NCBI GenBank assembly: GCA_964610325.1
Contig: CAZSVO010000002.1
Span: forward strand, 204,475-268,474
Origin: an uncultured Candidatus Izemoplasmatales bacterium
GTDB lineage: Bacteria > Bacillota_I > Bacilli_A > Izemoplasmatales > Hujiaoplasmataceae
Direction: 5' to 3'
DNA length: 64,000 nt
Part shown: one piece after another, positions 2,055 to 17,746 of the stretch
Layout of the letters: each line of letters opens with the position of its first letter
How positions within the stretch are numbered: the stretch's first letter is position 1
Notes under the pieces: generated by a model
Seen by the model: the letters and a program-made list of their open reading frames with translations, nothing else
Told to the model about the DNA's origin: nothing
The model's database searches: none
Position numbers and translations under genes: made by a program

Positions 2055-2696
2055 ATGGATGAAAGAAAAGTAATAAATGAGATTATAGATCGTGGGATTG
2101 TAGCTGTAGTAAGAGCTAGTAGCCACGAAAAAGCAGAAAGTATTATTGATGCCTGTATTAAAGGGGGAATAAGTGTAATAGAAATCACTTTTACTGTGCC
2201 TAATGTCGAAAGTCTAATCGAGAAAATAGTTAAAAAATATCGCGAAAATGATATACTAATAGGTGCTGGAACAGTAACTGATTTTACACAATGCAAAAAT
2301 GCATTTCTCTCTGGAGCAGAGTTTATTGTAGGACCTGGATTTGACCAAGATGTTTTGGATTGTTGTACTAATAATAATGTTGTTTACATACCTGGGTGTA
2401 TGACGATAACTGAAATTATGTCAGCCACTAAAAAAGGTTGTGAATTAATTAAATTATTTCCGGGGTCATTATTTGGACCGGAGTTTATTAAAGCAGTAAA
2501 AGGGCCATTACCGGATATAAAGATTATGCCAACAGGTGGAGTCGATCTTGAAAATATTGAAGAATGGATTAATAGTGGAGCTGTTGCTTTGGGGATAGGT
2601 TCTCAGTTGACTTATCCATCAAAATCAAATGATTATGATAAAATAGAATCAATTGCAAAAGAGTTTATAGAAAAGTTCAAAAAGTTTAGGAAATAG
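2055..2696 (+). CDS. eda: 2-dehydro-3-deoxy-phosphogluconate (KDPG) / KHG aldolase
   Basis: 213 aa. Eda-family motifs (GAGTV, KLFP, PTGGV). Lies between GH28 and kdgK. Confidence 0.85.
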   Translation: MDERKVINEIIDRGIVAVVRASSHEKAESIIDACIKGGISVIEITFTVPNVESLIEKIVKKYRENDILIGAGTVTDFTQCKNAFLSGAEFIVGPGFDQDVLDCCTNNNVVYIPGCMTITEIMSATKKGCELIKLFPGSLFGPEFIKAVKGPLPDIKIMPTGGVDLENIEEWINSGAVALGIGSQLTYPSKSNDYDKIESIAKEFIEKFKKFRK

Positions 2697-2711
2697 CCAG
2701 GGGGGGAAACA

Positions 2712-3734
2712 ATGGCAAAGATTGTTACTATGGGAGAAATCATGTTAAGGCTTTCTCCACCAAACAATTTGCGTTTTATACAAACTGATAGTTTTGATGT
2801 TGTTTATGGAGGTGGAGAGGCTAATGTAGCATCGAGTCTTGCCTGCTATGGACATGAAGTCTATTTTGTATCAAAACTTCCAGATAATGAAATAGGGCAA
2901 GCAGCAATTAATAAATTAAGACAGTTTGGTGTTCATACTGAATATGTCAAAAGAGGCGGTAATAGAATTGGAGTTTATTTCCTGGAAACAGGATCTGCTA
3001 TGCGAGCATCAAAAGTTATCTATGATCGATCAGCAAGTGCAATTTCTGAAGCTAAACCGGAAGAATTCATGCTGGATGAGATTTTTAAAGGCAAGGAATG
3101 GTTTCATTTTTCTGGAATTACTCCAGCTTTAAGCGATAAAGCAGCAGAACTTACCAAGCAAGCTTTAATTGCGGCTAAAAGTCATGGGCTGACTGTTTCA
3201 GTAGATCTAAATTATCGAAAAAAGCTTTGGTCAGAAGAAAAAGCACAAGAGATTATGAAACCATTAATGAAATATGTTGATATTTGTATAGGAAATGAAG
3301 AAGATGCATCACTGGTTTTAGGCTATAAGTTATCAAAGACTAATATCGATGAGGGTAAACTTACCAGAACCGATTATGAATCAATCCTTAGGAAGATGCA
3401 TGATGACTTTAGTTTTAAGTATGTTATTTCAACATTGAGAGAATCATTTTCTGCTAGTAAAAATGGGTGGAGTGCATTGATGTATGACGGTAAGAATTAT
3501 TATGAATCAATTAAGTTCATGATTGAACCTATTATTGACAGAGTTGGTGGTGGAGATTCTTTTAGTGCAGGAATTATTCATGGATTACTTAATTTCAATT
3601 CTCAAAAAGCGATTGATTTTGCTGCTTCAGCAAGCGCACTAAAACATACAATATTTGGTGATCAAAACTATGTTTCTGAAGCAGAAGTTCTAAAACTAGT
3701 TGAAGGAAATAGTTCAGGGAGAGTGGAAAGATGA
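2712..3734 (+). CDS. kdgK: 2-dehydro-3-deoxygluconokinase (PfkB family)
   Basis: N-terminal GG motif (YGGGEANVA) and C-terminal GGGDSF anion-hole motif of PfkB kinases. Context eda-kdgK-kduI-kduD. RBS GGGGGG 6 nt upstream. Confidence 0.8.
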   Translation: MAKIVTMGEIMLRLSPPNNLRFIQTDSFDVVYGGGEANVASSLACYGHEVYFVSKLPDNEIGQAAINKLRQFGVHTEYVKRGGNRIGVYFLETGSAMRASKVIYDRSASAISEAKPEEFMLDEIFKGKEWFHFSGITPALSDKAAELTKQALIAAKSHGLTVSVDLNYRKKLWSEEKAQEIMKPLMKYVDICIGNEEDASLVLGYKLSKTNIDEGKLTRTDYESILRKMHDDFSFKYVISTLRESFSASKNGWSALMYDGKNYYESIKFMIEPIIDRVGGGDSFSAGIIHGLLNFNSQKAIDFAASASALKHTIFGDQNYVSEAEVLKLVEGNSSGRVER

Positions 3735-4441
3735 AAGAAAATAGAACTGTAAATAGAGTATTAGCAATACTAGAATTAATAGCAAAATATGATGAAGGTT
3801 TAACTTTAGGACAGATATATCGAGAATTAGATATTCCGAAAGCAACCGCTTATGATTTTCTTCAAACACTTTATAAGGCAGATGCGATATATTATAAGGA
3901 TCCTAGACTGAAAAATTATGTGATTGGGTCCAAAATGTTTGCTATTGGATCGGTTTATGCTAAAAATTCTAATCTTATTGAAGCTGCACAGTATGACCTA
4001 AAGCAATATGCAGATAAACATGGTAGAACGGTCTTTATTACCAAAAGAATTAACGATAAAATTGTCTATGTATACAAATATCAACCTAGTAATTCTAAAG
4101 TGATTACTCCACAAGAAATTGGTAGTGTTACTAGAGATTTTAAGGAAGACATAATTGGAAAGTGTTTCTCTGTTTTTGACAAAAAAGTTAGAGATACTTC
4201 GATTGCAAATTTTGAAAATATTAGGAAAAATAGATTTATCTTGAGCAATAATCAAGAAGCAACTCATATCTGTACAGTTGCTGTACCTGTGTGGAATTTT
4301 GAAAATCGCGTCTGCGGAGTGTTAGTAGCATCAGCTTTGCAAGAAGAGAATACAAACAGAGAGTTGATTACGAATGAGTTAGTTGATATCTCTGAACAAA
4401 TCTCAAGAAAACTAGGTTATTTAGGCGATTTTAATGATTAA
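3731..4441 (+). CDS. IclR-family transcriptional regulator (KdgR-like)
   Basis: N-terminal wHTH typical of IclR (VNRVLAILELIA...LTLGQIYRELDIPKATAYDFLQTL) plus a C-terminal effector domain. Start overlaps the kdgK stop. Confidence 0.8.
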   Translation: MKENRTVNRVLAILELIAKYDEGLTLGQIYRELDIPKATAYDFLQTLYKADAIYYKDPRLKNYVIGSKMFAIGSVYAKNSNLIEAAQYDLKQYADKHGRTVFITKRINDKIVYVYKYQPSNSKVITPQEIGSVTRDFKEDIIGKCFSVFDKKVRDTSIANFENIRKNRFILSNNQEATHICTVAVPVWNFENRVCGVLVASALQEENTNRELITNELVDISEQISRKLGYLGDFND

Positions 4442-5243
4442 AATCGGTATTAGAGCTCATGATATCGGAAAGATGGATGCATATAGTCTAGCTGAAAAAG
4501 TTAAGAGTTATGGATTTTCAGGAGTACAATTAGTTTTAAAAAAAGCTTTGATAGAGTACTCAGATTTGGATATTATCAAAGATGCATTCAAAAATCTTGA
4601 AATCATGCTATTGGGCGCTTATTTTAACCCAGTTCATCCTAATGAAGATATCGTTAATGAAGGAATAAAAAACTTCGAAGAACACATAAAAATTGCTTCA
4701 AAATTGAACGTGAAATATGTAGGTAGTGAAACGGGATCTTTAATGGGCTCTTTGTGGGGGTATGTAGAAGAAAACCATTCTCAAGAGTCATTAGCTAGAG
4801 TAATTGAGATTTTTTATGGTTTAGTAAATCTTGCGAAAGAATATAATGTTAAAGTAGCAATAGAAGGAGCTTATGCTCATGTGGCTTTTTCACCGGAAAG
4901 AGTTAAAGAAGTAATAGATGCTATAGACTCAGATAACTTGAAAGTAACAGTGGACTTGTTTAATTTCTTAAACATGAATAATTACTCTAATCACATAGAG
5001 ATATTAAATCGTTGTTTTGATTTGTTTAAAGATAAGATTGCTGTATTTCATTTGAAGGATTTTATTGTAGTTAATGGTAAACTGATTCAAGTGGGTTTAG
5101 GGAAAGGTTTGATGGATTATCCAAGAATAATCAATAGAATAAAAGCAAAGACACCAAACACATTTTTAATTTTTGAAGGTGTTATTAATGAAGACATTAT
5201 TGACAGTTTAGAGTACATAAATAGTTTGTTAGAAAAGAGGTAA
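4434..5243 (+). CDS. Sugar phosphate isomerase/epimerase (xylose-isomerase-like TIM barrel)
   Basis: 269 aa. Pattern consistent with AP-endonuclease-2 / TIM-barrel isomerase family. Translationally coupled inside the kdu operon. Confidence 0.5.
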   Translation: MIKIGIRAHDIGKMDAYSLAEKVKSYGFSGVQLVLKKALIEYSDLDIIKDAFKNLEIMLLGAYFNPVHPNEDIVNEGIKNFEEHIKIASKLNVKYVGSETGSLMGSLWGYVEENHSQESLARVIEIFYGLVNLAKEYNVKVAIEGAYAHVAFSPERVKEVIDAIDSDNLKVTVDLFNFLNMNNYSNHIEILNRCFDLFKDKIAVFHLKDFIVVNGKLIQVGLGKGLMDYPRIINRIKAKTPNTFLIFEGVINEDIIDSLEYINSLLEKR

Positions 5244-5247
5244 AGAT

Positions 5248-6084
5248 ATGAATTTAGATATTAGATATAATAATCATCCAGAAGATACAAAGAGTTATGA
5301 TACAACGACTTTGAGAAATCGATTTTTAATTGAGAATGTATTTGCAGATGACCAGATTTTATTGACTTATTCTCATCATGATAGAATTATTGCAGGAGGG
5401 ATCAAACCTGTAAAGTTAAGCCTAGAACTACCTGTAACGAAAGACTTAGGAACAAATTTCTTCTTAGAAAGAAGAGAAATGGGCATTATTAATATTGGAG
5501 GTTCAGGGAAAATTATTCTAGATGGAGTAACTTATGAAATGGCTAACCAAGATGGTTTGTACATAGGTGCGATGACTAAAGAAGTAATATTTTCATCAAA
5601 GGATATTTTAAATCCAGCAAAGTATTATATAAACAGTGCGCCAGCACATAAAACATACCCAACAACCCACATTCCTTTTGCTAATGCAAATCCAAAGGTA
5701 TGGGGGTCACCAAAAAATCTTAACCAAAGAACAATTTATCAATATATACACCCAGCTGTTTGTAAATCATGTCAGTTGGCGATGGGGATGACAATCCTTA
5801 ACCCAGGAAGCGCATGGAATACTATGTCTTGTCATACTCATGAACGAAGAATGGAAGTATATTTTTATTTTAACATGGAAAAGGAAACAAGGGTTTTTCA
5901 CCTTATGGGGCAGCCGCAAGAAACAAGACATTTGGTAATTAAAAACGAACAGGCAGTAATCTCACCGAGCTGGTCTATTCATTCTGGTGTAGGAACTTCA
6001 GATTATACATTCATATGGGGAATGTGTGGAGAGAACAAGACTTTTGATGATATGGATTTTGTAGAAATGGATGAATTAAGGTAG
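5248..6084 (+). CDS. kduI: 5-dehydro-4-deoxy-D-glucuronate isomerase
   Basis: 278 aa, near-colinear with E. coli KduI. Shared blocks include FLERRE.GIINIGG, NSAPAH.TYPT, WNTM.CHTHERRMEVYFYFNM, MGQPQETRH, EQAVISPSWSIHSGVGT and YTFIWGM.GEN. Conserved His/Glu metal ligands present. Confidence 0.95.
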   Translation: MNLDIRYNNHPEDTKSYDTTTLRNRFLIENVFADDQILLTYSHHDRIIAGGIKPVKLSLELPVTKDLGTNFFLERREMGIINIGGSGKIILDGVTYEMANQDGLYIGAMTKEVIFSSKDILNPAKYYINSAPAHKTYPTTHIPFANANPKVWGSPKNLNQRTIYQYIHPAVCKSCQLAMGMTILNPGSAWNTMSCHTHERRMEVYFYFNMEKETRVFHLMGQPQETRHLVIKNEQAVISPSWSIHSGVGTSDYTFIWGMCGENKTFDDMDFVEMDELR

Positions 6085-6092
6085 GTAAAATT

Positions 6093-6863
6093 ATGAATAT
6101 TTTAGATAAATTTAATCTTAAAGGAAAAGTAGCAATCGTTACAGGTGCCTCAACTGGGCTTGGTCAAGGGATGGCTATAGGTATGGCAGAAGCTGGTGCA
6201 AATGTCGTAGGTGTTGATTATGTGGAAATGACTGAAACTGGCCAAATAATCAATAGTTTTAACAAGGAGTTTTTTGGAATTGTAGAAAATCTAATTACTA
6301 TAAAACCCGAGGGATTAGAAGTTATTGTTGAAAGAGCAGTAGAAAGATTTGGACGAGTAGATATTTTGATAAATAACGCAGGAATAATTAGAAGAGAAGA
6401 TTCGATAGATTTCAGTGAAAAGAATTGGGATGATGTAATGAACATTAACATAAAAACAGTATTTTTCTTCTCTCAAGCAGTTGCAAAATTATTTGTAAAG
6501 CAAAATACTGGAGGTAAAATCATCAATATAGCCTCAATGTTGTCTTTTCAAGGAGGAATAAGAGTTCCATCTTATACCGCTTCTAAATCCGCAGTAAAAG
6601 GCATTACAATGCTTTTAGCGAATGAATGGGCTAAGTTTAACATTAATGTAAATGCTATTGCTCCAGGATATATGGCAACCAATAATACAGAGGCTTTGAG
6701 GAATGATCCTCAAAGATCAAAAGAAATATTAGATCGAATTCCAGCAGGGCGATGGGGATTGCCATCTGATTTAGCTGGTGCTGCAGTATTTTTAGCAAGT
6801 GATAACTCTAATTATATAAACGGTTATACTTTAGCAGTTGATGGCGGTTGGTTAGCTAGATAA
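6093..6863 (+). CDS. kduD: 2-dehydro-3-deoxy-D-gluconate 5-dehydrogenase (SDR)
   Basis: 256 aa. Near-identical block structure to E. coli KduD (GKVAIVTGASTGLGQGMA; INNAGIIRRED; GGKIINIASMLSFQGGIRVPSYTASKS; NAIAPGYMATNNT; RIPAGRWGLPSDL; VDGGWLAR). Confidence 0.95.
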   Translation: MNILDKFNLKGKVAIVTGASTGLGQGMAIGMAEAGANVVGVDYVEMTETGQIINSFNKEFFGIVENLITIKPEGLEVIVERAVERFGRVDILINNAGIIRREDSIDFSEKNWDDVMNINIKTVFFFSQAVAKLFVKQNTGGKIINIASMLSFQGGIRVPSYTASKSAVKGITMLLANEWAKFNINVNAIAPGYMATNNTEALRNDPQRSKEILDRIPAGRWGLPSDLAGAAVFLASDNSNYINGYTLAVDGGWLAR

Positions 6864-6868: not shown

Positions 6869-6903
6869 TAACACTGAGGATTTAACTTCAGTGTTTTATT
6901 TTT
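6869..6903. terminator. Bidirectional rho-independent terminator between convergent kduD and the LarA-like gene
   Basis: Hairpin aacactgagg-atttaa-cttcagtgtt followed by TTATTTTT. Overlaps the stop of the minus-strand ORF. Confidence 0.6.
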
Positions 6904-8173
6904 CGAGAAATTTTAACTTATCAATCCATAAACCTAGAGCTGGATTAGGAATATAGAATACCTCTTTACCATTTTCAAGAATATTCCATCCGTATTTTAA
7001 ACGATTTGGATTATAGATTTTTACCATTTCATCATAGTCCGCAGAACAGAAATTGACAGATTCTATTTCTTCTTTAGTGATATTTTTGACGGCATAAGTA
7101 ATTTTAAAACGATTATCAGAGGAACTGTGAATCAAATGAGCAGCAACTCCCATATTCTCTTGAAGTTCAATGTTATTGTTAAATAGTTTCAATACATTGA
7201 GTCTTCCGCAATAGCCGTACTTTCTAATTAACTCATCTATTCTTTTATCTTCACCAAACTTTTTGACTCCAGGTGCAAGAACAATTAGTTCTCCGCCATC
7301 TTTAATAGCCATTCTAGTTCGGTAAATTGATTTATTCCCTAACCATGTGCTTTTAAACTCTTCTGGTTCTAAATAGACGACGCAGGTTTCAATTGGCTTT
7401 TCTAAAAAATCAATGTTCTTTTTTTGAGAAGCTTTAATTGCCAATTCCAAGGCGTTTCGATTAGGACCGATATATAGACCATGAGTTTTAATCTCTGCTT
7501 TTAAAGCTGTAGTTACAGTAAGAACAAACACTAAAGGGATTTTACTTAAGAAATTTGTCATTGCATAATCTAAAACTTTTCTTACAGGTGTATGATCTTT
7601 ACCCATCATTCTTTCCATTCCATAAACTGCACCAATCATATGACTTTGATTGATTGTTTGCTTGCCTCCACAACCAACAAGGATGTTTTTGGAGTGGTTT
7701 GACATACCGATAACCTCATGTGGGACAACTTGACCAATTGATAAAATCAAATCATAAGTTGAGTCGAGTAGAATTTTATTCACTTCACATGTTACTGGTC
7801 TATTCCATAAACCCTCAGTAATTTCGTTGACATACTCTTTAGGTACTACACCAACCTCCTCTATATCATTTCGCCAATCGTGATATAAAAAAACATCAAA
7901 AGGAATATCGCCATACATTTTCAAGCATTCTTCTTCTGTCATAGCATCATGAGTTCCTAAAGCTGGAAGAATATCAACTTCAATATTATTATTCTTACAG
8001 TAGTTATAGTAATAGTTAGTTATTAATCCCGCATTGGAATGATATCTTGTAAAATCAGGTGGAATAAGTAGTACTTTACTTAATTTGCGACTTATTATAG
8101 ATTGTTCCAAAGCTGAAAAAATTTCTTGATTGCTTAATCCTGCATCTGCAAGATTCTCAATAAATATATCCAT
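6896..8173 (-). CDS. LarA-like (DUF2088 / lactate-racemase superfamily) protein; candidate hydroxy-acid 2-epimerase (D-mannonate/D-gluconate, GntE-like)
   Basis: 425 aa, the typical LarA-homologue length. N-terminal block VLLIPPDFTRY resembles the hIIxxDxTR motif of the LarA N-terminal domain. Last gene of the uxaE-like/kinase/gnd/SDR operon. The family call is by memory of the motif, not by alignment. Confidence 0.4.
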   Translation of the reverse strand: MDIFIENLADAGLSNQEIFSALEQSIISRKLSKVLLIPPDFTRYHSNAGLITNYYYNYCKNNNIEVDILPALGTHDAMTEEECLKMYGDIPFDVFLYHDWRNDIEEVGVVPKEYVNEITEGLWNRPVTCEVNKILLDSTYDLILSIGQVVPHEVIGMSNHSKNILVGCGGKQTINQSHMIGAVYGMERMMGKDHTPVRKVLDYAMTNFLSKIPLVFVLTVTTALKAEIKTHGLYIGPNRNALELAIKASQKKNIDFLEKPIETCVVYLEPEEFKSTWLGNKSIYRTRMAIKDGGELIVLAPGVKKFGEDKRIDELIRKYGYCGRLNVLKLFNNNIELQENMGVAAHLIHSSSDNRFKITYAVKNITKEEIESVNFCSADYDEMVKIYNPNRLKYGWNILENGKEVFYIPNPALGLWIDKLKFLEK

Positions 8174-8176
8174 TAT

Positions 8177-9028
8177 CTAGACACCTGAGTAAGCAGAGAA
8201 TCCACCATCAACAGGAACAACTACACCGGTAACAAAGCTAGAAGCCTCATTATCTATGAGCCAAAGCATTGTTCCAATCAACTCCTCTGGTTCTCCATAA
8301 CGTCCCATCGGAGTGTTGTTAAGTATTTTTTCGGATCTTTTTGTTGGAGTTCCATCAGGATTCCATAAGAGACTTCTGTTTTGAGTGGTTGAAAAAAAGC
8401 CAGGAGCAATAGCGTTAACGCGAATTCCACTTTTTGCAAAATGCACAGCCAACCATTGAGTAAAATTTGATATGGCTGCTTTAGCTGCGCTATAAGCAGG
8501 AATTTTTGTTAATGGAGTAAAAGCGTTCATTGATGAAATATTAACTATTGAACATTCAGATTTTTTAATCATATCGATACCAAATTCTTGAGTTGGCAGT
8601 AAAGTGCCTTTGAAGTTAAGACCAAAAACAAAGTCAACCCCATCAGAATCCAAATCAAAAAAACTAATTTTTTCTGGATTTGTTAAGGTTTCATAGTTGA
8701 AAAACTCATCATCAGTTGTAGCTTTTGGACTGTTACCACCAGCGCAGTTAATCAATATATCTGTAGACCCAAGTTCTTCTTTAACAATTCTATGAGCTTC
8801 TTTTATGGAATCTTTGCTTAAGACATTTGCTTTAACTGGTATAGCAAAAAAACCTTCAGATTGAATTTCATCTGAAATCTTTTTTGCTTGGTCGTAAGAT
8901 AGGTCTAGTATTGCTACTTTAGCGTTGCATCGCGCAATTGCCTTAGCAAAATAACTACCAAGAACTCCACCACCTCCAGTAATTACAACAACTTTTTCGG
9001 TTAAATCTGGGTATTTCAATTTTTTCAT
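8177..9028 (-). CDS. SDR-family oxidoreductase, candidate fructuronate/mannonate oxidoreductase (UxuB-like)
   Basis: Rossmann motif VVVITGGGGVLG. SDR catalytic region SAAKAAISNFTQ. Start revised to MKKLKYPDL (ATG 9026-9028) because the longer track ORF would overlap gnd by 107 nt. Confidence 0.6.
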   Translation of the reverse strand: MKKLKYPDLTEKVVVITGGGGVLGSYFAKAIARCNAKVAILDLSYDQAKKISDEIQSEGFFAIPVKANVLSKDSIKEAHRIVKEELGSTDILINCAGGNSPKATTDDEFFNYETLTNPEKISFFDLDSDGVDFVFGLNFKGTLLPTQEFGIDMIKKSECSIVNISSMNAFTPLTKIPAYSAAKAAISNFTQWLAVHFAKSGIRVNAIAPGFFSTTQNRSLLWNPDGTPTKRSEKILNNTPMGRYGEPEELIGTMLWLIDNEASSFVTGVVVPVDGGFSAYSGV

Positions 9029-9044
9029 AATAAATAATCCCTTC

Positions 9045-10496
9045 TTATACATTATAAGTTGAAGAAGAAGTTTTTCCTCCTCTTCCCGTCCAATTTGTGT
9101 GGTAAAACTCACCTTCTTGACAATCAATTCTCTCATAAGTGTGTGCACCAAAATAATCCCTTTGAGCTTGGATTAAGTTAGCTGGTGAAGTATCACTTGT
9201 ATATCCGTGGAAATATGATAGTGCAGAGGAAAGCGCAGGAATTGCAATTCCACTTAATGATGCATGCGCACATACTCTTTGCCAACCAGGCAAAATCTCT
9301 TGGATTGTCTTTTTAAAGTAATCATCAAGAAGAAGATTCTCTAATGCTTTATTTCTAGTATAAGCATCTTTTATCTCGTTCAAAAATTTTGAACGGATTA
9401 TACATCCGCCTCGCCAAATCTCGGCTATTTTTCCATAGTCTAGATTCCAGTTATAGTTATTAGCTGCTGCTCTTAATAAGGAATAACCTTGAGCATAAGA
9501 AATTATTTTTGAAGCATATAATGCATCATGTAAATCATTAAGAAACTCAACTTTGTTTCCATCAAATTTTTTAATATCTCGATTATAAAATTTCGATGCT
9601 TTAACTCTCTCTGCTTTAATAGCAGATAAGAATCTTGCATAAACTGCTTCAGTTATTAATGTTAGAGGAATATTCTCTTCTAAAGAAGCAATCCCTGTCC
9701 ATTTCCCTGTGCCTTTCTGGCCAGCTTTATCTAAAATCTTTTCAAGCAAAGGATTGCCGTCTTCATCTAGAAAACCGATAATATCAGCGGTTATCTCAAT
9801 AAGGTAACTCTCTAATTTGCCTTTATTCCAGTTAGAAAAAGTTGTCTTTATTTCTTCAAAATTCATACCAAGAGATTTTTTCATCAAAAAGTAAGTCTCT
9901 GCAATAATCTGCATATCACCATATTCTATTCCATTATGAATCATCTTCACATAATGGCCTGCACCATCGCTTCCAATCCAATCACAACAAGGTTCATTAT
10001 CAACTTTTGCAGAAATTGATTGCAGGATATCTTTTACCTTTGGCCAAGCTGAGATAGAACCTCCAGGCATTACTGAAGGACCATTCAAAGCACCTTCCTC
10101 ACCGCCAGAAACTCCTGTTCCGATAAAAAGAAAACCCTTATTCTTGAGATATTTTGTTCTATTTATTGTATCAATGTAATTGGAATTTCCTCCATCAATA
10201 ATTATATCACCTTGATCTAGATAAGGTAGTAATGCTTCTATGACATCATCTACAGGAGAACCTGCTTTTATCATCATCATAATCTTTCTAGGTTTAGAAA
10301 GACTATTAACTAAGGTTTTGATGTCATAAACTCCTTGTAAATTACTACTTCCATATTTGTCAATTACACGATTTACATCTAACTCAAAACGATCATAAAC
10401 AATTACTTTAAAACCTTTTGAGGATATATTCCTTGCGAGATTCTCACCCATTACAGCAAGACCTATTAAGCCAATGTCACCAAGATTTGTAGTCAT
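9045..10496 (-). CDS. gnd: 6-phosphogluconate dehydrogenase (decarboxylating)
   Basis: 483 aa. N-terminal NADP-binding motif IGLIGLAVMGENLARN. Typical 6PGDH C-terminal domain (GIEYGDMQIIAE; RGGCIIRS). Confidence 0.9.
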   Translation of the reverse strand: MTTNLGDIGLIGLAVMGENLARNISSKGFKVIVYDRFELDVNRVIDKYGSSNLQGVYDIKTLVNSLSKPRKIMMMIKAGSPVDDVIEALLPYLDQGDIIIDGGNSNYIDTINRTKYLKNKGFLFIGTGVSGGEEGALNGPSVMPGGSISAWPKVKDILQSISAKVDNEPCCDWIGSDGAGHYVKMIHNGIEYGDMQIIAETYFLMKKSLGMNFEEIKTTFSNWNKGKLESYLIEITADIIGFLDEDGNPLLEKILDKAGQKGTGKWTGIASLEENIPLTLITEAVYARFLSAIKAERVKASKFYNRDIKKFDGNKVEFLNDLHDALYASKIISYAQGYSLLRAAANNYNWNLDYGKIAEIWRGGCIIRSKFLNEIKDAYTRNKALENLLLDDYFKKTIQEILPGWQRVCAHASLSGIAIPALSSALSYFHGYTSDTSPANLIQAQRDYFGAHTYERIDCQEGEFYHTNWTGRGGKTSSSTYNV

Positions 10497-10502
10497 AGTT
10501 TT

Positions 10503-11576
10503 TCACCTCTTTACTCTAGCGTTTCCTTGATATATACTCCATATTTGTTCTTCATCAGCTACTAAACCATAGTCATCTAACAAAGTAACTACATAAGCAC
10601 CACATGCCCAAGCGAACTGCAAACACGATGTGCTATCGAATCCTTTTAGCAGACTATAAAGAAAACCACCGACAAATCCATCGCCTCCACCTATTCTATC
10701 AAGTACTTGAATTGGTCTTGGTAAGACAACTTGCCATTCTTCATCAATTAATGCAACTGCTCCCCAAAGATGTTCATTAGCATTATTGACTTCTCTTAAG
10801 GTAGTAGCAAAACACTTGGTATTTGGATATATAGCTTTTGCATTATTGATTAATGTCTTAAAACTATCGATTTCATCAGAAATGTTTTTACCCCCAGCTT
10901 CTGGACCGGGAATGTTTAATGCTAATTGGAAGTCTTCTTCATTGCCAATTAGTATATCTGATACTTCAGCAATACTCTTGAAAACATTCTCAAGTTCATC
11001 TCTTCGGTTTTTCCAAAATGAAGCTCGATAATTTAAATCAAAAGAAACTTTAGTCCCTGAAGTTTTAGCTTTTTTAGCTAACTCTACACAAAATTTTGCA
11101 GAATTTTCAGATAATGATGCTATCAAACCAGAAATATGAATCAATTTTACCCCATCTTCAAGAAATAACTTGGTTAAGTTAAAGTCTTTGGTATTCAGTG
11201 TTTTTCCGACTTCTCCTGAACGATCATTATGTACTCTTGGTCCTCTTAAACCATAACCACTATCGGCGATATTAAACTGATGTCGATAGCCCCATGGCCC
11301 GCCTTGTTCAACTTCTATTCCTTCAAACTCAATATTTCTGAACATAAGATCGTTTTTTATGAACTTCGCTATAGGACTATCTTTGACAAAAGTGGTTAAT
11401 ACTTTTGTTCTCATACCTAAACTAGCAGCTATACTCAAAACGTTTGATTCTGCACTGGTTGCTTGCAAGCGATAATCTCTTGCTAAATGAACTGGTTGTC
11501 TATCGTGAGGAGTAAGTCTAACCCCCATACTAGTTGGTACTACTAAAGAATATAATGCATTTTCTTTAAATTTCAT
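10503..11576 (-). CDS. PfkB-family sugar/sugar-acid kinase (candidate gluconate or KDG kinase)
   Basis: 357 aa. PfkB C-terminal motif GGGDGFVGGFL. A second PfkB kinase besides kdgK, adjacent to gnd. Confidence 0.65.
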   Translation of the reverse strand: MKFKENALYSLVVPTSMGVRLTPHDRQPVHLARDYRLQATSAESNVLSIAASLGMRTKVLTTFVKDSPIAKFIKNDLMFRNIEFEGIEVEQGGPWGYRHQFNIADSGYGLRGPRVHNDRSGEVGKTLNTKDFNLTKLFLEDGVKLIHISGLIASLSENSAKFCVELAKKAKTSGTKVSFDLNYRASFWKNRRDELENVFKSIAEVSDILIGNEEDFQLALNIPGPEAGGKNISDEIDSFKTLINNAKAIYPNTKCFATTLREVNNANEHLWGAVALIDEEWQVVLPRPIQVLDRIGGGDGFVGGFLYSLLKGFDSTSCLQFAWACGAYVVTLLDDYGLVADEEQIWSIYQGNARVKR

Positions 11577-11588
11577 AAAACCCTCCTT

Positions 11589-13070
11589 TTAATTGAAGCC
11601 TTTATATAGCAAAGCAAGATGATTTCCAATGTGTTTTGATAACTCATCAGCATACAATTTTTCTTCTTTTTTCCATAGTTTGTACAACTCAGTTTTAAAA
11701 AGATATTTACCACTCTCATCTTTTTCATTTAGAATATATCCATAAGTAATGTGTATAAGTTGCCTTGCGTCATTATTCTTAAACAAATCAACTAAGCATT
11801 CATCAGCTATCAAATCCACATCAGGAATCTTATTTATGTCAGTAGTGACATGATAAAACTTTGTAGCATCATTAAATTTAGATAGCGCATATTTATGAAT
11901 TCTTCGATACATATTAGGATTGCATATAGAAACAACTTTCATAGCTTCTAGCCAGTTTGTTCCAGCGGTTTTTACATGAAAATGACCTTTTGTATATTTT
12001 CCAATGAGTTCAAAAATTGAAAATTTATCAGAACCAGAGTGAATGCTCAATTTGTACCCAAAATGCCTTGCGATTGCTGCATGTAATTTTAGTTCATTTT
12101 CAAATTGAAACAAATCGCCGATGTAATCAATGCCTTTCTGAAATTCTCCGCAAAACCTTGGTGCAATAGTGTCTATTTTGACGCCGGCAAGAAGCAACTC
12201 ATTTGCTACAAAATAGTGTTCTAGAGCTGTTGTTGGTGTGGAAGTTTCATCAATAGATATTTCAAAACCAACTTTAGTTTTGCTTTTGCTTATATATTTA
12301 TCATAAATCTTCTTTGAATAATCAATCGCATTTTGGTAAACTAACATGGCTCTTCTCAAATCTAACTCAGTAAATTTTAACTCAATACCTTCGATGATAA
12401 TCTCCTTATTAAGGTATTTACCAATCAATGAACTGTTGATGTTAGTAAGTCTAATTATCTGTTCTACAGACATGTTTAATACATCATCTCTAATATGCTC
12501 ACTACAATCTAAGGTAATCATAGTGAAGCCTAATGATAAAGCATATTCAATATCACTAGCCGTCTTTAGGTGATCACCATCAGCCCCGAAGCCTTTTTTA
12601 TAACCTTCGCGAAAAACAGAGAAAGAAGCTTTATCCAAAACATCTTCATAACTCCTGTTTGTCATGTTTAGTTCCCTAATCGATTGCTGAGCTAGTACTG
12701 GGTAACAATCATAGTTATTAATAATTTGCAAATGTCCTTTACCGGCTATACCAAGACGATCTCCTAAACCAAAACTGCGTGGTTTATCAAGAACAGATAT
12801 GGGTTTAGTAAAGGGGAAAAGCAATCTTAATGCATTTGCGTTAGCATGAGTTAGGGGAGCTATTTTGTATGATAAACCATCATCAACAAAAGATTCTCCT
12901 TCAAATTCATTTTGGATTCTACCAGAAACTAGCAGTTTATCCTGGTTTTCTTGAACAAATAAAAATACCCAAGAATCTTGAAAAGGATTTATAGAAGCTT
13001 TATAGATGTTCAAAGTTTCATAACCTTTTGTCTCGGGGAGTTGTTTGATAAAGTCTTTAAAGGATATCAT
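11589..13070 (-). CDS. Tagaturonate/fructuronate epimerase-like protein (UxaE-like TIM barrel)
   Basis: 493 aa. No Rossmann motif, so not UxaB. No UxaC or UxaA signatures. Size and context fit the UxaE family. Strong RBS GGAGGTAAGGA. Call made by context and recollection, not alignment. Confidence 0.4.
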   Translation of the reverse strand: MISFKDFIKQLPETKGYETLNIYKASINPFQDSWVFLFVQENQDKLLVSGRIQNEFEGESFVDDGLSYKIAPLTHANANALRLLFPFTKPISVLDKPRSFGLGDRLGIAGKGHLQIINNYDCYPVLAQQSIRELNMTNRSYEDVLDKASFSVFREGYKKGFGADGDHLKTASDIEYALSLGFTMITLDCSEHIRDDVLNMSVEQIIRLTNINSSLIGKYLNKEIIIEGIELKFTELDLRRAMLVYQNAIDYSKKIYDKYISKSKTKVGFEISIDETSTPTTALEHYFVANELLLAGVKIDTIAPRFCGEFQKGIDYIGDLFQFENELKLHAAIARHFGYKLSIHSGSDKFSIFELIGKYTKGHFHVKTAGTNWLEAMKVVSICNPNMYRRIHKYALSKFNDATKFYHVTTDINKIPDVDLIADECLVDLFKNNDARQLIHITYGYILNEKDESGKYLFKTELYKLWKKEEKLYADELSKHIGNHLALLYKGFN

Positions 13071-13120
13071 TCCTTACCTCCATATTACCGTATATAAATA
13101 CGGACACCGTTTATTAGAAT

Positions 13121-13150
13121 ATTATATCATTATTTTGTTCTTGTTGTCAA
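13121..13150 (-). promoter_or_regulatory. Sigma-A-type promoter for the uxaE-like/kinase/gnd/SDR/larA-like operon
   Basis: On the minus strand: TTGACA, 18-nt spacer, TGaTATAAT (extended -10). About 45 nt upstream of the start codon. Confidence 0.55.
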
Positions 13151-13173: not shown

Positions 13174-13193
13174 TAATCATATTAATATGATTA
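13174..13193. promoter_or_regulatory. Perfect 20-bp palindrome TAATCATATTAATATGATTA, candidate operator in the divergent promoter region
   Basis: Exact reverse-complement symmetry. Lies between the -35 elements of the divergent uxaE-like and GH105 promoters. Confidence 0.6.
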
Positions 13194-13300: not shown

Positions 13301-14395
13301 TTGTTGAAGATTTTTTTAGATAGATTTATTAGTCAAATCATTGATGAGTTTAATCCTTATCATCCCAATAAGAGGCTGACATATGAAGATGGATTGTATT
13401 TGATTTTATTATTGAAATATTACCAATTAAGAAAAGATGAAAAAGCATTGAGCTATCTTCTTAATTATCTCGATGCATACATTGATGAGGTCGGGGATAT
13501 TAAAGATTATCAATTAGCAGAATACAATATTGATAATATATTAGCAGGTAATGTGCTATTTTTTGCAAATGATTTGACCAAAAACAAGAAGTATGAACAT
13601 GCAATAAATAATTTAGTAAATCAGATTAAACATCAACCAAGAACCAGAACAGGCAATTTTTGGCATAAACTAAGATACCCATATCAGATATGGTTGGATG
13701 GTATATATATGGGTCAAGTTTTTTACTTGAGATATGCAATTTATAATAATAAAACAGAGTTATTGTCTGATATTATGAATCAAGTGATGAATGCAGATAA
13801 GCTATTGTGGGATCAAGATAGAATGCTTCACCTCCATGCTTATGATGAGACAAAGATTATGCAGTGGGCAGATAAAGAGTCTGGACGTTCACCTAATGTT
13901 TGGAGTAGATCAGTTGGATGGTTTGCTATGGCATTGGTCGATATTTATGAGCTCCTAGGAAATAATTATGAATCTGAGAGAAAGAATATAAAAGATATCT
14001 TGACAAGAATGATTGAAGGATTGAGACCTCATTTAGACAAAGAAATTAAAATGATTTATCAAATTATTGATAAACCTAGTTTGAACGGTAATTATCCTGA
14101 GACTAGCGGAAGTGCGATGATTGCTTATGCATTGATTAAAGGCTATAGATTAAAACTTCTAGATATAGATTATTTAATCTTGGGTAAGGAGATTATCAAA
14201 GAGATTGATAGATTATACCTAAAAGAAAAACAAGGTCGATTTTTTTTAGGAGGTATATGTAAAGTTGCTGGGCTAGACAATGATTTAAGAGATGGCAGTG
14301 AGGGTTATTATCTATCTGAGCCAGTTGTGGATAATGAGATCAAGGGAGTTGCTCCTTACCTTTATGCTTTGATTGAGTTAGCTCTATTACAGTAA
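13301..14395 (+). CDS. Unsaturated rhamnogalacturonyl/glucuronyl hydrolase (GH105/GH88 family, (alpha/alpha)6 barrel)
   Basis: 364 aa. TTG start with RBS AAGGAG. Size and sequence character of YteR/YesR-like hydrolases. Pectin context. Confidence 0.6.
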   Translation: MLKIFLDRFISQIIDEFNPYHPNKRLTYEDGLYLILLLKYYQLRKDEKALSYLLNYLDAYIDEVGDIKDYQLAEYNIDNILAGNVLFFANDLTKNKKYEHAINNLVNQIKHQPRTRTGNFWHKLRYPYQIWLDGIYMGQVFYLRYAIYNNKTELLSDIMNQVMNADKLLWDQDRMLHLHAYDETKIMQWADKESGRSPNVWSRSVGWFAMALVDIYELLGNNYESERKNIKDILTRMIEGLRPHLDKEIKMIYQIIDKPSLNGNYPETSGSAMIAYALIKGYRLKLLDIDYLILGKEIIKEIDRLYLKEKQGRFFLGGICKVAGLDNDLRDGSEGYYLSEPVVDNEIKGVAPYLYALIELALLQ

Positions 14396-14421
14396 TAATT
14401 AAGAAAATAATTCTAAAATAT

Positions 14422-14458
14422 AACGCTACTAGATAATTAGAAAGAGTAGCGTTTTTTA
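14422..14458 (+). terminator. Rho-independent terminator after GH105
   Basis: aacgctact-(15 nt)-agtagcgtt followed by TTTTTT. Confidence 0.65.
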
Positions 14459-14497
14459 TATGGGAGAAAGAAAAAAAAGTGAAAATCTATGTAAGCG

Positions 14498-14526
14498 TTG
14501 ACATTTCTTTTGAGATATTATATAAT
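14498..14526 (+). promoter_or_regulatory. Consensus sigma-A promoter for the ABC transporter operon
   Basis: TTGACA, exactly 17 nt, TATAAT. Confidence 0.65.
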
Positions 14527-14599
14527 TATATTATAAACGGTGTACGTATATATAGACGATATACCATTTGTTAAATTATTTTGTTTGCGGAGTCTAAAT

Positions 14600-15937
14600 A
14601 TGAAGAAGATAAATATTATAGTGATGTTTTTATTTTTAATTTTGGTTTTTATTGGATGTTCCAATAATGAATCAACAAAAACATTAACTGATCAAGAAAC
14701 CATAAGTTTTTCTTGGTGGGGAACAACTGATCGAAATATAGCTACATTTAAAGCTATAGAACTTTTTGAAGAGATGTATCCTCAGTATACGGTCATTGCT
14801 GATCAGTCATCTTGGGATGGTTATCAAACCTCACTATACAATAAACTTGAAAGAGGTAGAGAATCTGATATATTTCAAGTAAATTACAACTGGTTATATT
14901 CTATGGACGGTGAGTACTACTTTATGGATTTAAATGATTTGGAGTTTGATTTCTCGAATTGGCCAGAAGATGAACACCGACCTTTAACAATTAATGAAAA
15001 AGTACTTGGGTTGTCTTTGTCTGAAACAGGATATGTTTTTTACTTGAATTGGAAAGTATATGAAGATGCTGGAATTGAATCTGTTCCCGAAACATGGGAG
15101 GAGTTAATTGTAGCTGGACAAAGAATCGGACAACAAAGCAATGGTACTAAATACGCATTGGGAAGACTGGATGCACAACAGGTTGCTATTTTGATGTTTA
15201 GTTGGTTAGCTCAAATTTATGGAAAGAATATTATTAGTGATGAATTTAAACTTAATTATACAAGAGAAGAATTAGCGGAAGGATTTGCTTTTATCAATAC
15301 GCTTAGAAGCAATAATGTATTAATTTCATCAAATTCCTTTGATACACATACAGTCGGACCTACAAATCCTAATTGGGTAACTTATCAAAATTATGGTGGG
15401 ATATTACAGTGGAATACAGCTGTATCAGAGTATGAGAATGAATTACCTAATACAGCCAATCTAATAACAGCAGGAATGTTTCAGCAAAACAAAGGTGAAA
15501 AATTAGGAATATACAAAAAGGTATCGATGGCTCTTTCTGTATCAAAGCGAGTAGATGAATCCGAATCAAAAAAGCTAGCAGTGAAAACATTTTTAGAGTT
15601 TATGGTAAGCAATGAAGAAGCAATCATCGCGTTAGGGGTTGATAGAGGTGTGCCAAACAATGAATTGGCATATAATGTCTTAAGAGAATCAACTAATCCT
15701 GTTTTTACAGATACTTTTGAATGGCAAGGACATAGGATTGTTCAAGAGTATTATAATAATCAGGTTTCTTTACAACAAGACCTATATATTCATCCTTACT
15801 ATGAGCATGATGTATTTAGAAGAATCTATGAAATTCCAATTGAAAAATTTTTATTCAATACTTATACAGCTAATCAAGCTATAAATGATATAATCAATAA
15901 CTTTGATTCTACGCTTGAATCAGTAACAAGGAGATAA
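14600..15937 (+). CDS. ABC transporter substrate-binding lipoprotein (family 1 SBP, LplA-like; oligogalacturonide/sugar)
   Basis: Start revised to MKKINIIV (ATG 14600, RBS GGAG). Lipobox LVFIGC-S. SBP family 1 size and features. Confidence 0.75.
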   Translation: MKKINIIVMFLFLILVFIGCSNNESTKTLTDQETISFSWWGTTDRNIATFKAIELFEEMYPQYTVIADQSSWDGYQTSLYNKLERGRESDIFQVNYNWLYSMDGEYYFMDLNDLEFDFSNWPEDEHRPLTINEKVLGLSLSETGYVFYLNWKVYEDAGIESVPETWEELIVAGQRIGQQSNGTKYALGRLDAQQVAILMFSWLAQIYGKNIISDEFKLNYTREELAEGFAFINTLRSNNVLISSNSFDTHTVGPTNPNWVTYQNYGGILQWNTAVSEYENELPNTANLITAGMFQQNKGEKLGIYKKVSMALSVSKRVDESESKKLAVKTFLEFMVSNEEAIIALGVDRGVPNNELAYNVLRESTNPVFTDTFEWQGHRIVQEYYNNQVSLQQDLYIHPYYEHDVFRRIYEIPIEKFLFNTYTANQAINDIINNFDSTLESVTRR

Positions 15938-15945
15938 GGTATTTT

Positions 15946-16830
15946 ATGGTCGGTGAAAAGAAGTATTTACCTTATTTACTTTTAATACCTTGGCTAATAG
16001 GTTTTTTAGTTTTTAAGTTATATCCTTTTATTAATTCTTTTTATTTGAGTTTATTTGAGAAATTATCTCCACGTGAATCAGAATTTATTGGGTTTGATAA
16101 TTATAGAAAACTATTTATGCGTTCTGATTTTTTTGGTGGACAATTCATTAACTCCATGAAAGTTACATTTAATTATGTATTTTTTACAGTACCTTTGATT
16201 TTAATTGTTTCTTTGTTGGTAGCTTATGTACTGAGTAAAAAAATCAAAGGAATAGGGTTTTTTAGAACTGCTTTTTACGTTCCTACAGTTTTGGGAGCGA
16301 ATGTAGCTGTAGTTTTATTGTGGAGAGAATTGTTTGAGTCATATGGTTTGATAAATCAAGGTTTAGCTTTGCTAGGAATGAAACAGATTAACTGGTTCGG
16401 CTCAAGTGCTGGAGCAATGACTTCGATTATTGCTCTTAGGGTATGGCAGTTTGGATCTACAATGCTGATATTTTTAGCAGCATTGAAGAACATTTCACCA
16501 TCACTTTATGAAGCGGCAGAAATTGATGGTGCTTCAAAAATAAGGCAATTTAGAGTAATAACAATACCAATGTTGACACCAGTAATTCTTTTCAATGGTG
16601 TTATGCGTTTAGTTGAGACATTTCAAACCTTCACTTCAGCAAAGTTAATTACAAACGGTGGCCCTCTTGATTCGACAAGAGTAATTAATCTGTTAATTTA
16701 TCAGGTAGCTTTTGAAAATCGAAATTTCAACCTTGGCAGCGCGATGTCATGGATTTTGTTTGTTGTTATTATGCTATTTACTATTCTAATTTTTAGAAGT
16801 TCTAAATACTGGGTTTATTATCAAGATTAG
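15946..16830 (+). CDS. Carbohydrate ABC transporter permease (MalF/LplB-like)
   Basis: Six TM segments. EAA loop EAAEIDGASKIRQFRVITIPM. Confidence 0.85.
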   Translation: MVGEKKYLPYLLLIPWLIGFLVFKLYPFINSFYLSLFEKLSPRESEFIGFDNYRKLFMRSDFFGGQFINSMKVTFNYVFFTVPLILIVSLLVAYVLSKKIKGIGFFRTAFYVPTVLGANVAVVLLWRELFESYGLINQGLALLGMKQINWFGSSAGAMTSIIALRVWQFGSTMLIFLAALKNISPSLYEAAEIDGASKIRQFRVITIPMLTPVILFNGVMRLVETFQTFTSAKLITNGGPLDSTRVINLLIYQVAFENRNFNLGSAMSWILFVVIMLFTILIFRSSKYWVYYQD

Positions 16831-16831
16831 T

Positions 16832-17746
16832 ATGAATAGTTATAAAATAAATTCAATTTTACGAAGAAATCGCGCCAAACGTAAAATAATCAAAACAGTT
16901 CAATATATTTTAATCTCATCAGTAAGTTTTTTTATGCTCTATCCTCTATTATGGTTAATCGGCGCATCATTTAATGATGGGCTTATGACGAATTTCTCCT
17001 TCATTCCCGTAGAATTCACTATCCAGGGGTGGCTAGATGGCTTTAAAGCTCCTGGATGGGGGAGTGTGGAAGGTTATTCGATATTAAGAGCTTTGTGGAA
17101 TACGATGCAATATGTAATTCCTAAAACAATAATTACTACTTTTTCAACTCTTTTAGTTGCTTTTGTTGTAGCGCGTATGCATTTTAAAGGAAAGAAGATT
17201 GTTTTTGCTTTAATTATCGGTACTCTCTTAATGCCAGTAACGATATTTAGGATTCCTTTATTTATCTTTTGGACTTCAGAGATTATTTCTCCTTTATGGG
17301 AAGGTAGCAAATTACCGTTTATGCCATATCTACCTTTATGGGGAGGCGCTTTTTTTGCTTTAGATTCATTTTCTATTTTCATGTTTATCCAATTTTTCCG
17401 CTCGATCCCTAGAGATTTAGATGAAGCGGCATATATAGATGGAGCAAGTAAATTTCAGTTATTACATCATGTTTTAATGCCGATGATACTTCCTGCAGTA
17501 GTTACGGTAGCTTTGTTGCAGTTTATAGCAACTTACAATGATTACCAAGGCCCCTTGATTTATAGAGGTGATGTAGATACATATCCTCTTACATTAGTTT
17601 TGCCAATGCTAGGAAAGGATTCAACTAACACATACGCACATGTCTTTACTAGATCAATTATTGCAGTGATTATACCCTTAACATTTTTCTTTGTTGCTCA
17701 AAAATTTTTTATTGGCAATGATGTTGAATCGGGGATTAAAGGATAA
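16832..17746 (+). CDS. Carbohydrate ABC transporter permease (MalG/LplC-like)
   Basis: EAA loop EAAYIDGASKFQLLHHVLMPM. Six TM segments. Confidence 0.85.
   Translation: MNSYKINSILRRNRAKRKIIKTVQYILISSVSFFMLYPLLWLIGASFNDGLMTNFSFIPVEFTIQGWLDGFKAPGWGSVEGYSILRALWNTMQYVIPKTIITTFSTLLVAFVVARMHFKGKKIVFALIIGTLLMPVTIFRIPLFIFWTSEIISPLWEGSKLPFMPYLPLWGGAFFALDSFSIFMFIQFFRSIPRDLDEAAYIDGASKFQLLHHVLMPMILPAVVTVALLQFIATYNDYQGPLIYRGDVDTYPLTLVLPMLGKDSTNTYAHVFTRSIIAVIIPLTFFFVAQKFFIGNDVESGIKG

Follow-up and report, generated by a model that had tools for sequence, protein, structure and literature searches.

A predicted dehydratase-free hexuronate shunt, with a divergent PfkB-type kinase linked to Gnd and a LarA-family epimerase, in the pectin locus of a Candidatus Izemoplasmatales bacterium

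How might a pectin locus in which none of the genes uxaB, uxaA and uxuA is found pass hexuronates on to central metabolism? The question is raised by a 64,000-nucleotide stretch of DNA (the window) from an uncultured Candidatus Izemoplasmatales bacterium (GenBank assembly GCA_964610325.1, contig CAZSVO010000002.1, positions 204,475 to 268,474), in which an operon convergent to kduI-kduD had been described in an earlier note as encoding a UxaE-like protein, a PfkB kinase, Gnd, a short-chain dehydrogenase/reductase (SDR) and a LarA-superfamily protein. All five identities were borne out by profile matches, and the kduI, kduD, eda and kdgK genes facing the operon are real. It is likely that the operon encodes a dehydratase-free shunt which carries pectin-derived hexuronate into the pentose phosphate pathway. 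The order of two of its steps is far less settled, and one of the two enzymes concerned, the kinase, belongs to a family delimited here. The host had been said to have a "Firmicute-type genome", a loose description of a member of Candidatus Izemoplasmatales whose GyrA is 77-85% identical to those of Izemoplasmatales metagenome-assembled genomes. The genes for lysine fermentation and glutamate mutase had at first suggested Fusobacterium as the host, an idea rejected on the GyrA identity.

By open reading frame (ORF) and profile searches, the five genes run in one direction on the minus strand, from 13070 to 6896. The elements of the operon, together with the entry enzyme of the proposed route, are the following, in window coordinates.

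13176 to 13191: palindrome ATCATATTAATATGAT (ATCATAT-N2-ATATGAT), between the divergent uxaE and GH88 promoters, a candidate operator
13150 to 13121, minus strand: predicted operon promoter, TTGACA, an 18-nt spacer and a TG-extended TATAAT, called only from its 12/12 match to the sigma-70 consensus
13088 to 13103: palindrome CCGTATATAAATACGG, past the -10 element and before the uxaE ribosome-binding site
11589 to 13070, minus strand: uxaE, tagaturonate/fructuronate 3-epimerase, 493 amino acids (aa); Pfam UxaE (PF16257), 626.5 bits, profile positions 1-475 of 475
10503 to 11576, minus strand: pfkB*, divergent PfkB sugar-acid kinase of the KdgK clade, 357 aa; Pfam PfkB, 77.6 bits
9045 to 10496, minus strand: gnd, decarboxylating NADP-dependent 6-phosphogluconate dehydrogenase, 483 aa; TIGR00873, 710.9 bits, cutoff 426.7
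8177 to 9028, minus strand: SDR-type fructuronate reductase / D-mannonate oxidoreductase, 283 aa; NF006132, 430.3 bits, cutoff 281
6896 to 8173, minus strand: larAH18, LarA-superfamily C2 epimerase of the nickel-pincer-nucleotide (NPN) type, GntE branch, 425 aa (predicted activity); NF052594, 626 bits, cutoff 500
6870 to 6895: bidirectional intrinsic terminator, a 10-bp stem preceded by an A-run and followed by a T-run, common to the convergent kduD and larAH18
about -9601 to -8210, same contig, 8.2 kb outside the window on its upstream side: uxaC, 463 aa, identified by Pfam

One predicted promoter, some 50 nt ahead of the start codon of uxaE, one terminator, and intergenic gaps of 3-16 nt with a Shine-Dalgarno sequence before every gene (GGAGG in the case of uxaE) indicate that the operon is a single transcription unit. 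Position 13150, given in the earlier note as the end of the operon, falls in the -35 element of the promoter and not at a gene end.

The 493-aa protein, which the earlier note required to be of the UxaE family, matches the UxaE profile over its full length and the UxaE of Cohnella laeviribosi (PDB 6IL9) with an E-value of 2e-138, and Gnd carries both expected domains (Pfam 6PGD and NAD_binding_2). The SDR begins with the ATG at 9028, although an earlier in-frame start codon, the first, stands at 9151; a ribosome-binding site (GAAGGGA) lies 9 nt before the ATG at 9028, and gene callers likewise give a protein of 283 aa. While it passes the mannonate-oxidoreductase model, the SDR stays below the cutoffs of the KduD and gluconate-5-dehydrogenase models (129-150 bits against 279-408 for the latter). 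Exact copies of the window proteins were found only on metagenome contigs. A metagenome contig of 265 kb is 100% identical to the window across 12 kb, and it was on this contig that uxaC was located.

The route as first proposed overlooked its entry enzyme, the uronate isomerase UxaC, which is required by the route and is encoded not in the window itself but upstream on the same contig. With it the enzyme set of the shunt is complete: UxaC, UxaE, a fructuronate reductase, a C2 epimerase, a candidate hexonate kinase and Gnd. The absence of uxaB, uxaA and uxuA from the locus held from -19.6 kb to +64 kb. None of the three enzymes was detected in precomputed Pfam assignments upstream, or in a scan of the window ORFs with a length of 120 aa or more, which passed over four in the lysine-fermentation region (128-247 aa). 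Because the search covered the locus, the term dehydratase-free holds for the locus and cannot be claimed for the genome.

The predicted C2 epimerase, LarAH18, matches NF052594, the model of a "nickel-dependent putative hexonate epimerase", over profile positions 3-410 of 411, and matches Pfam Lar_N (52 bits, cutoff 23.3) and Thermotoga maritima GntE2 (PDB 4NAR, E 5.6e-31). In the PDB the closest match to an AlphaFold2 model of the protein (pLDDT 87.7) is 4NAR, with a TM-score of 0.82; the top 19 matches are all LarA-family structures, those of LarA and Mar2, including 5HUQ (TM 0.72), following 4NAR. Seven residues, D40, R43, H75, H152, K162, H178 and K281, are invariant in two alignments, one of 11 distant and one of 25 close homologues. 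In LarA, K184 tethers the cofactor, H200 is a nickel ligand and R75 binds phosphate (Desguin et al., 2020; PMC7583248). LarAH18 K162, H178 and R43 align with K164, H180 and R41 of GntE2, and H75, H152, D40 and K281 are the counterparts of catalytic H108 and H174, Asp72 and Lys298 of LarA; the cofactor-binding lysine, on which the earlier note had made its prediction depend, is thus present and invariant. The GntE specificity signature E, V, A, H, which occupies the places of LarA F175, F176, W358 and T359 (PMC11770544), is found as E153, V154, A345 and H346, and the protein carries the signature of LarA homologue group 18, D R H H E V K H .. W L N K. Such invariance of catalytic and cofactor residues argues for purifying selection on a working active site, and LarAH18 looks like a working enzyme of the GntE type.

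What such an enzyme does is known from other members of the superfamily. Groups 20 (Thermotoga) and 19 are mannonate/gluconate 2-epimerases, and group 18 had been designated only a predicted hexonate epimerase (Desguin et al., 2020; PMC7583248). An enzyme of Phytophthora nicotianae, LarAH15/GntE, epimerises free D-mannonate with a kcat of 111 per s and a Km of 9.4 mM, and its cloning primer encodes MATLLFAE (JBC 2024). This peptide matches the start of the LarA domain in the group-18 protein PITG_09435. Judged by its primer alone, then, the characterised Phytophthora enzyme would be a group-18 orthologue.

The kinase, PfkB*, reaches no NCBIfam cutoff: the best models of 2-keto-3-deoxygluconate (KDG) kinases give it 104-152 bits against cutoffs of 440-700, its leading scores to KDG-kinase equivalogs are 103.9 (cutoff 440), 50.5 (400) and 37.6 (400), its 18 NCBIfam matches include no GntK model of either the FGGY or the P-loop type, and its sole Pfam match is PfkB. 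Its nearest solved relatives are KDG kinases (E 2.5e-26), and it is 27% identical both to the KdgK encoded in the window and to T. maritima KdgK (PDB 2AFB). Orthologues that are 56-66% identical to the window kinase are present in 37 of the 80 best LarAH18 loci. In 38 PfkB* orthologues the catalytic GGGD (G296-G297-G298-D299) and NEED (N212-E213-E214-D215) motifs are invariant, as are 123 positions in all, 60 of which differ from KdgK and cluster in the lid region (residues 95-125). As a bona fide KdgK, only 27% identical, is encoded in the same window, PfkB* is best regarded as a distinct enzyme, predicted to be a hexonate 6-kinase acting on gluconate or mannonate.

One would otherwise have to suppose that PfkB* is a second KDG kinase in an operon of mosaic origin, with the LarA homologue inactive for want of NPN biosynthesis in a small genome and Gnd no more than a housekeeping copy. 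The JGI annotation of PfkB* as "2-dehydro-3-deoxygluconokinase" and the KDG-kinase identity of its nearest solved relative would fit this, as would the outcome of motif searches for larB, larC and larE, none of which was found in six frames of the window, in its flanks (with the window, about 94 kb of contiguous sequence) or among the ORFs of the 80 related loci. Two ORFs were the only PP-loop matches, none was obtained for LarC, and the searches were crude, such that divergent genes could escape them. The canonical KdgK, however, already lies 7 kb away beside eda, and the PfkB* proteins form an orthologous group of their own, scoring 399-486 bits to the window kinase as against about 100 bits to KdgK, with their invariant positions shared across phyla. 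Where PfkB* is present, a Gnd gene is no more than 6 kb from LarAH18 in 36 of 37 loci, and the catalytic and cofactor residues of LarAH18 are invariant, as set out above. A second KDG kinase is therefore very improbable.

It is clear from the wider distribution of these genes that their association is not confined to one organism. A scan of GTDB species genomes returned at least 599 species with a group-18 LarA relative; ORFs were called and clustered in the best 80 LarAH18 loci, of which 31 have at least 6 kb on both sides. Among these 31, Gnd is a neighbour of LarAH18 in 27 (87%), PfkB* in 24 (77%), in every case together with Gnd, an SDR or a long-chain fructuronate reductase in 18, and UxaC and UxaE in 9 each. 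No recurrent gene cluster among the 80 loci corresponds to UxuA. The identical five-gene order is kept in the closest relatives, L087 (82% identity), L088 (71%), Peloplasma and Acholeplasma, and carriers among the 80 loci include gut and rumen Clostridia, Sphaerochaeta, Kiritimatiellae and wall-less Izemoplasmatales and Acholeplasmatales. Recurrence of the gene trio in dozens of genomes argues that the arrangement is not due to chance, and the presence of PfkB* in 24 of the 31 full-flank loci makes a PfkB kinase the rule of this module and not an oddity. The arrangement, which the earlier note had held to be unusual, is in fact the dominant context of group 18, and a weaker form of the association was tabulated previously, with an SDR near 36% of group-18 genes, Gnd near 32%, a ribokinase-family kinase near 16%, and UxaC and KduI near 12% each (Desguin et al., 2020, Table S1).

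Variation among the loci touches both the reductase and the kinase. In some, a long-chain reductase of the mannitol-dehydrogenase family replaces the SDR. In L066 (8530-9981) and L069 a gluconokinase-like FGGY kinase occupies the PfkB* position next to LarAH18 and Gnd; its best model is the gluconokinase model TIGR01314, at 285 bits against a cutoff of 648. PfkB* seems here to have been displaced by a non-orthologous protein, a further non-canonical kinase presumed to act on hexonates. Regulators of the GntR or AraC type are present in other LarAH18 loci. Genes for an S-component of an energy-coupling factor (ECF) transporter and for a PRK/uridine-kinase-like P-loop protein flank the operon, on differing sides, in three Acholeplasmatales-type relatives (L007:11364-12733; L008, downstream of LarAH18; L088:3699-4876), and might serve salvage of a vitamin or cofactor precursor.

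The gene linkage also bears on what the epimerase acts upon. The LarA homologue could in principle invert some other 2-hydroxy acid derived from hexonates or uronates (altronate/allonate, or L-gulonate/L-idonate), with 6-phosphogluconate reached by other means, and there is some reason to consider this: group 18 is labelled only "putative hexonate epimerase", a native substrate other than mannonate was suspected for group 19 (Desguin et al., 2020; PMC7583248), and the long-chain reductase stands in for the SDR in some loci. The window SDR, however, falls with the mannonate oxidoreductases and fails the gluconate-5-dehydrogenase models, UxaE supplies fructuronate, the substrate spectrum of the Phytophthora orthologue is narrow and centred on mannonate/gluconate, and an idonate route would need extra dehydrogenases which are absent from the operon. 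The idea is weakened further because linkage to Gnd requires a product of gluconate configuration, and inversion at C2 yields this only from mannonate. The family scores of the SDR and the tie to Gnd were the grounds for rejecting L-gulonate/L-idonate and altronate as epimerase substrates, and a substrate of this other kind is improbable.

From these assignments we infer the substrate of each enzyme in the shunt, as well as the order of the LarAH18 and PfkB* steps. UxaC would convert galacturonate to tagaturonate and glucuronate to fructuronate, UxaE would epimerise tagaturonate to fructuronate, and the SDR would reduce fructuronate to D-mannonate. LarAH18, by transient hydride abstraction with the nickel-pincer nucleotide, would then invert C2 of D-mannonate to give D-gluconate; PfkB*, a descendant of the KDG-kinase clade, would phosphorylate D-gluconate at C6; and Gnd would oxidatively decarboxylate the resulting 6-phosphogluconate to ribulose-5-phosphate and CO2. 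The route would be redox-neutral, because Gnd regenerates the reducing equivalent used by the SDR. KduI, KduD, KdgK and Eda, for their part, would handle the unsaturated monomers released by lyases.

Whereas the overall passage from tagaturonate through fructuronate, mannonate and 6-phosphogluconate to ribulose-5-phosphate stands as first proposed, the order of its middle steps had simply been asserted, and the case for LarAH18 acting before PfkB* is evenly balanced. Several observations weigh against the scheme as drawn. Extracts of Lactobacillus suebicus, from which all physiological data on a shunt of this kind derive, formed no gluconate from mannonate without ATP, produced 6-phosphomannonate and interconverted it with 6-phosphogluconate (Valk et al., 2020; PMC6978723), and these data favour a kinase that precedes the epimerase. 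All assayed enzymes of the GntE type have a high Km for free mannonate, 9.4-120 mM (Desguin et al., 2020, PMC7583248; JBC 2024). All close relatives of PfkB* are uncharacterised proteins, and the substrate assigned to it is pure deduction. As larB, larC and larE were not found in the window or near any of the 80 loci, in agreement with Table S1 of Desguin et al. (2020), the supply of NPN is presumed, and a dehydratase could be encoded elsewhere in the genome. The 80 loci, finally, are those most similar to the query, and the linkage percentages may not hold for distant members of group 18.

One reading that accommodates the extract data, and which is possible if tentative, is that PfkB* is a D-mannonate 6-kinase and LarAH18 a 6-phospho-D-mannonate/6-phospho-D-gluconate 2-epimerase, with no free gluconate formed; the two genes would then account for two orphan activities of L. 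suebicus. In that organism the apparent Km was about 0.4 mM for mannonate as against 10 mM for gluconate, and a GntE homologue was expressed on galacturonate (Valk et al., 2020; PMC6978723). The high Km of the assayed epimerases for free mannonate would also be understandable, the linked kinase is never canonical, being a KdgK-derived PfkB protein in 37 of the 80 loci and a sub-cutoff FGGY protein in two, and the lid region of PfkB* is invariant across its family, unlike that of KdgK. On the other side, the group-18 orthologue and two other GntE groups do epimerise free D-mannonate, with kcat values of 59-197 per s; the literature, in the portions accessible to us, reports no trial of phosphorylated substrates on any LarA homologue; and Valk et al. 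(2020; PMC6978723) suspected FGGY-type GntK homologues, not a PfkB kinase.

In 20 of the 80 loci, phosphatases of three unrelated families are encoded within the PfkB*-Gnd-LarAH18 operon or next to it, for example Cof-HAD proteins in L012, L014, L027, L034, L035 and L047, HAD_2 proteins in L019, L048, L052 and L085, and PHP proteins in L067, L075, L076, L081 and L082. They are odd companions here, where no phosphorylated intermediate would be expected other than those of central metabolism. They would fit a relief valve for a non-central phospho-intermediate, as expected if mannonate were phosphorylated first, an argument which is circumstantial and to which the window operon, being devoid of a phosphatase, adds nothing. 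That PfkB* is a dedicated PfkB-family D-mannonate 6-kinase and LarAH18 an NPN-dependent 6-phosphomannonate 2-epimerase, together the genes behind the activities described in 2020, is doubtful on present evidence; if true, LarAH18 would give the LarA family its first enzyme for a phosphorylated sugar acid, and the embedded phosphatases would be a relief valve for 6-phosphomannonate.

The predicted shunt, in which LarAH18 and PfkB* lead by either order to 6-phosphogluconate, is embedded in a larger pectin locus whose other features in the window are these.

516 to 2045, plus strand: GH28 polygalacturonase; Pfam Glyco_hydro_28, and NF051860 (PglA) at 424 bits, below the cutoff of 600
2055 to 6863, plus strand: the KDG branch, comprising eda, kdgK, an iclR-type regulator gene, an AP_endonuc_2 TIM-barrel gene, kduI and kduD
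3731 to 4441, plus strand: the IclR-type regulator within the KDG branch
13301 to 20440, plus strand: divergent genes for uptake and degradation of pectin oligomers, encoding a GH88/GH105-type unsaturated uronyl hydrolase, an ATP-binding cassette (ABC) solute-binding protein, two permeases, a protein from an unknown ORF and a PL2 pectate lyase

The polygalacturonase is the predicted source of saturated galacturonate. In the KDG branch Eda, KduI and KduD score 269, 443 and 397 bits (NCBIfam cutoffs 238, 250 and 339), and KdgK matches NF041633 in the kinase half of that model, with 503 bits. A Pfam scan of the divergent genes gave Glyco_hydro_88 (251 bits), SBP_bac_1, BPD_transp_1 twice and Pectate_lyase_2 (521 bits), and a GH4 gene lies further to the right, past the pectate lyase. 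To the left of the window, from about -9601 to -520 (L091:10001-20121), the pectin locus continues with UxaC, a CE8 pectinesterase, a second pair of ABC permeases, an MsmX-like ATPase, a 706-aa protein and four small proteins, these last five all Pfam-less; UxaC marks the edge of the locus, as a starch locus begins upstream of it. Elsewhere in the window are gyrA, gyrB and recF, mfd, a lysine riboswitch, an IS110 element, and lysine-fermentation and glutamate-mutase genes, and to the right of the window only further genes of lysine and glutamate fermentation follow.

Control of the pectin genes may be approached through the palindromes. A sequence related to that at 13176-13191, ATCATAT-N6-ATATGAT, lies at 27946-27965 upstream of GH4; two such related palindromes are found in the window where 0.02 would be expected, and the one between the divergent promoters is kept at the same place in L087. 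The two are candidate operators of a pectin regulon. The palindrome at 13088-13103 is possibly a second operator or a hairpin in the 5' untranslated region; it is present in a single copy and is not above chance by itself, at least one match being found in 46 of 100 shuffles. An Rfam scan of the window matched only the lysine riboswitch, and nothing within the operon.

Other features of the locus stand apart from the shunt. Between the IclR regulator and kduI, at 4434-5243 on the plus strand, is the AP_endonuc_2 or xylose-isomerase-like TIM-barrel gene, which falls below all curated family cutoffs. It adjoins KduI in L029, L050 and L087 and belongs to the same Eda cluster in L047, a contig that ends before any kduI, and it may represent an unassigned step of the 5-keto-4-deoxyuronate branch. 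Its candidacy as a substitute uronate isomerase was dropped, since UxaC is encoded on the same contig and the two co-occur in L029. The pectin locus of this presumably wall-less host also encodes a protein of 1961 aa (20962-26847, plus strand) in which Big-like domains and Listeria-Bacteroides repeat domains occur, and three window ORFs have no significant Pfam match (17691-18665, 20431-20940 and 29550-30506); these four may be undescribed components that bind or degrade pectin. The lysine riboswitch (48756-48928, plus strand, 70 bits) points toward a lysine-fermentation operon (kamA, kamDE, kce, coenzyme A transferase) that begins at 50546 on the plus strand, and is separated from it by an IS110-family transposase gene (49210-50286, minus strand), which may uncouple the two.

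Much of the concept is already known: the pathway was predicted in 2012, validation of the epimerase came in 2020 and 2024, NCBIfam has a name for the family and the gene association was tabulated in 2020, and the value of the present analysis is incremental because concept, epimerase family and gene association were all available in the literature or in NCBIfam. What is new is a delimited, uncharacterised PfkB family of candidate hexonate kinases, tightly linked to Gnd and LarAH18; no mention of a PfkB-type kinase for gluconate or mannonate in such a setting was found in the literature searched. The shunt would convert galacturonate to ribulose-5-phosphate without net redox cost, and redox-neutral use of galacturonate is what Valk et al. 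(2020; PMC6978723) sought in order to engineer the fermentation of pectin-rich waste. In PfkB*-Gnd-LarAH18 there is a defined and widespread candidate gene pair, and PfkB* with LarAH18 could well account for the two orphan activities, mannonate kinase and 6-phosphomannonate epimerase. The distribution would also place a nickel-pincer enzyme in mainstream sugar catabolism in the species that carry it, for whose use of pectin a requirement for nickel and the NPN cofactor is implied.

Of the known systems the nearest is that of Thermotoga, for which the route was reportedly predicted by Rodionova and colleagues in 2012, as part of the UxaR regulon, and the precedent invoked in the earlier note, a GntE-type LarA homologue, is a real one. 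The T. maritima branch gnd-uxaR-uxaE-uxaD-gntE-gntK follows the same logic in a pectin locus, with the same roles filled by UxaE, an SDR reductase, a LarA-family C2 epimerase, a kinase and Gnd, and there too the galacturonate branch coexists with a kdgK/kdgA branch. A KdgK-derived PfkB protein stands in the window where Thermotoga has GntK, as had been claimed; T. maritima GntK (TM0443) we take to be of the FGGY type. The Thermotoga epimerase is of LarA homologue group 20 and the window epimerase of group 18 (about 24-30% identity). Thermotoga employs the GntR-type regulator UxaR, whereas the window pectin locus is devoid of a GntR-family gene and has an IclR-type regulator instead; Thermotoga also keeps uxuA, which is not found in the window locus; and the window host is a mesophilic member of Izemoplasmatales. 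The activity of T. maritima GntE2 (TM0442, PDB 4NAR) as an epimerase was validated by Desguin et al. (2020; PMC7583248).

Within group 18 ("G2E3", NF052594) the window protein passes the model cutoff and shares the group signature. None of the assayed members is bacterial, the Phytophthora enzyme being placed in the group from its primer sequence, and linkage to the kinase in the loci analysed here, at 77%, is far above the 16% of the 2020 group-18 table. The isomerase-phosphoketolase hybrid pathway of L. suebicus, in which a mannonate kinase acts first and a 6-phosphomannonate 2-epimerase second, has been described from activities whose genes were not identified (Valk et al., 2020; PMC6978723). 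Its carbon flow is the same, from galacturonate by way of tagaturonate, fructuronate, mannonate and 6-phosphogluconate to ribulose-5-phosphate, and it is likewise redox-neutral and bypasses the dehydratase. It differs in that the kinase-first order was measured, in that its products feed the phosphoketolase pathway and in that GntK homologues of the FGGY type were suspected. With the PfkB-family KDG kinases (T. maritima TM0067, PDB 2AFB; Thermus thermophilus, PDB 1V1A) PfkB* shares the fold and the GxGD and NxxE motifs; it departs from them in its identity of about 27%, in scores below every KDG-kinase cutoff, in a different family-invariant lid, and in being linked to Gnd and LarAH18 in place of Eda.

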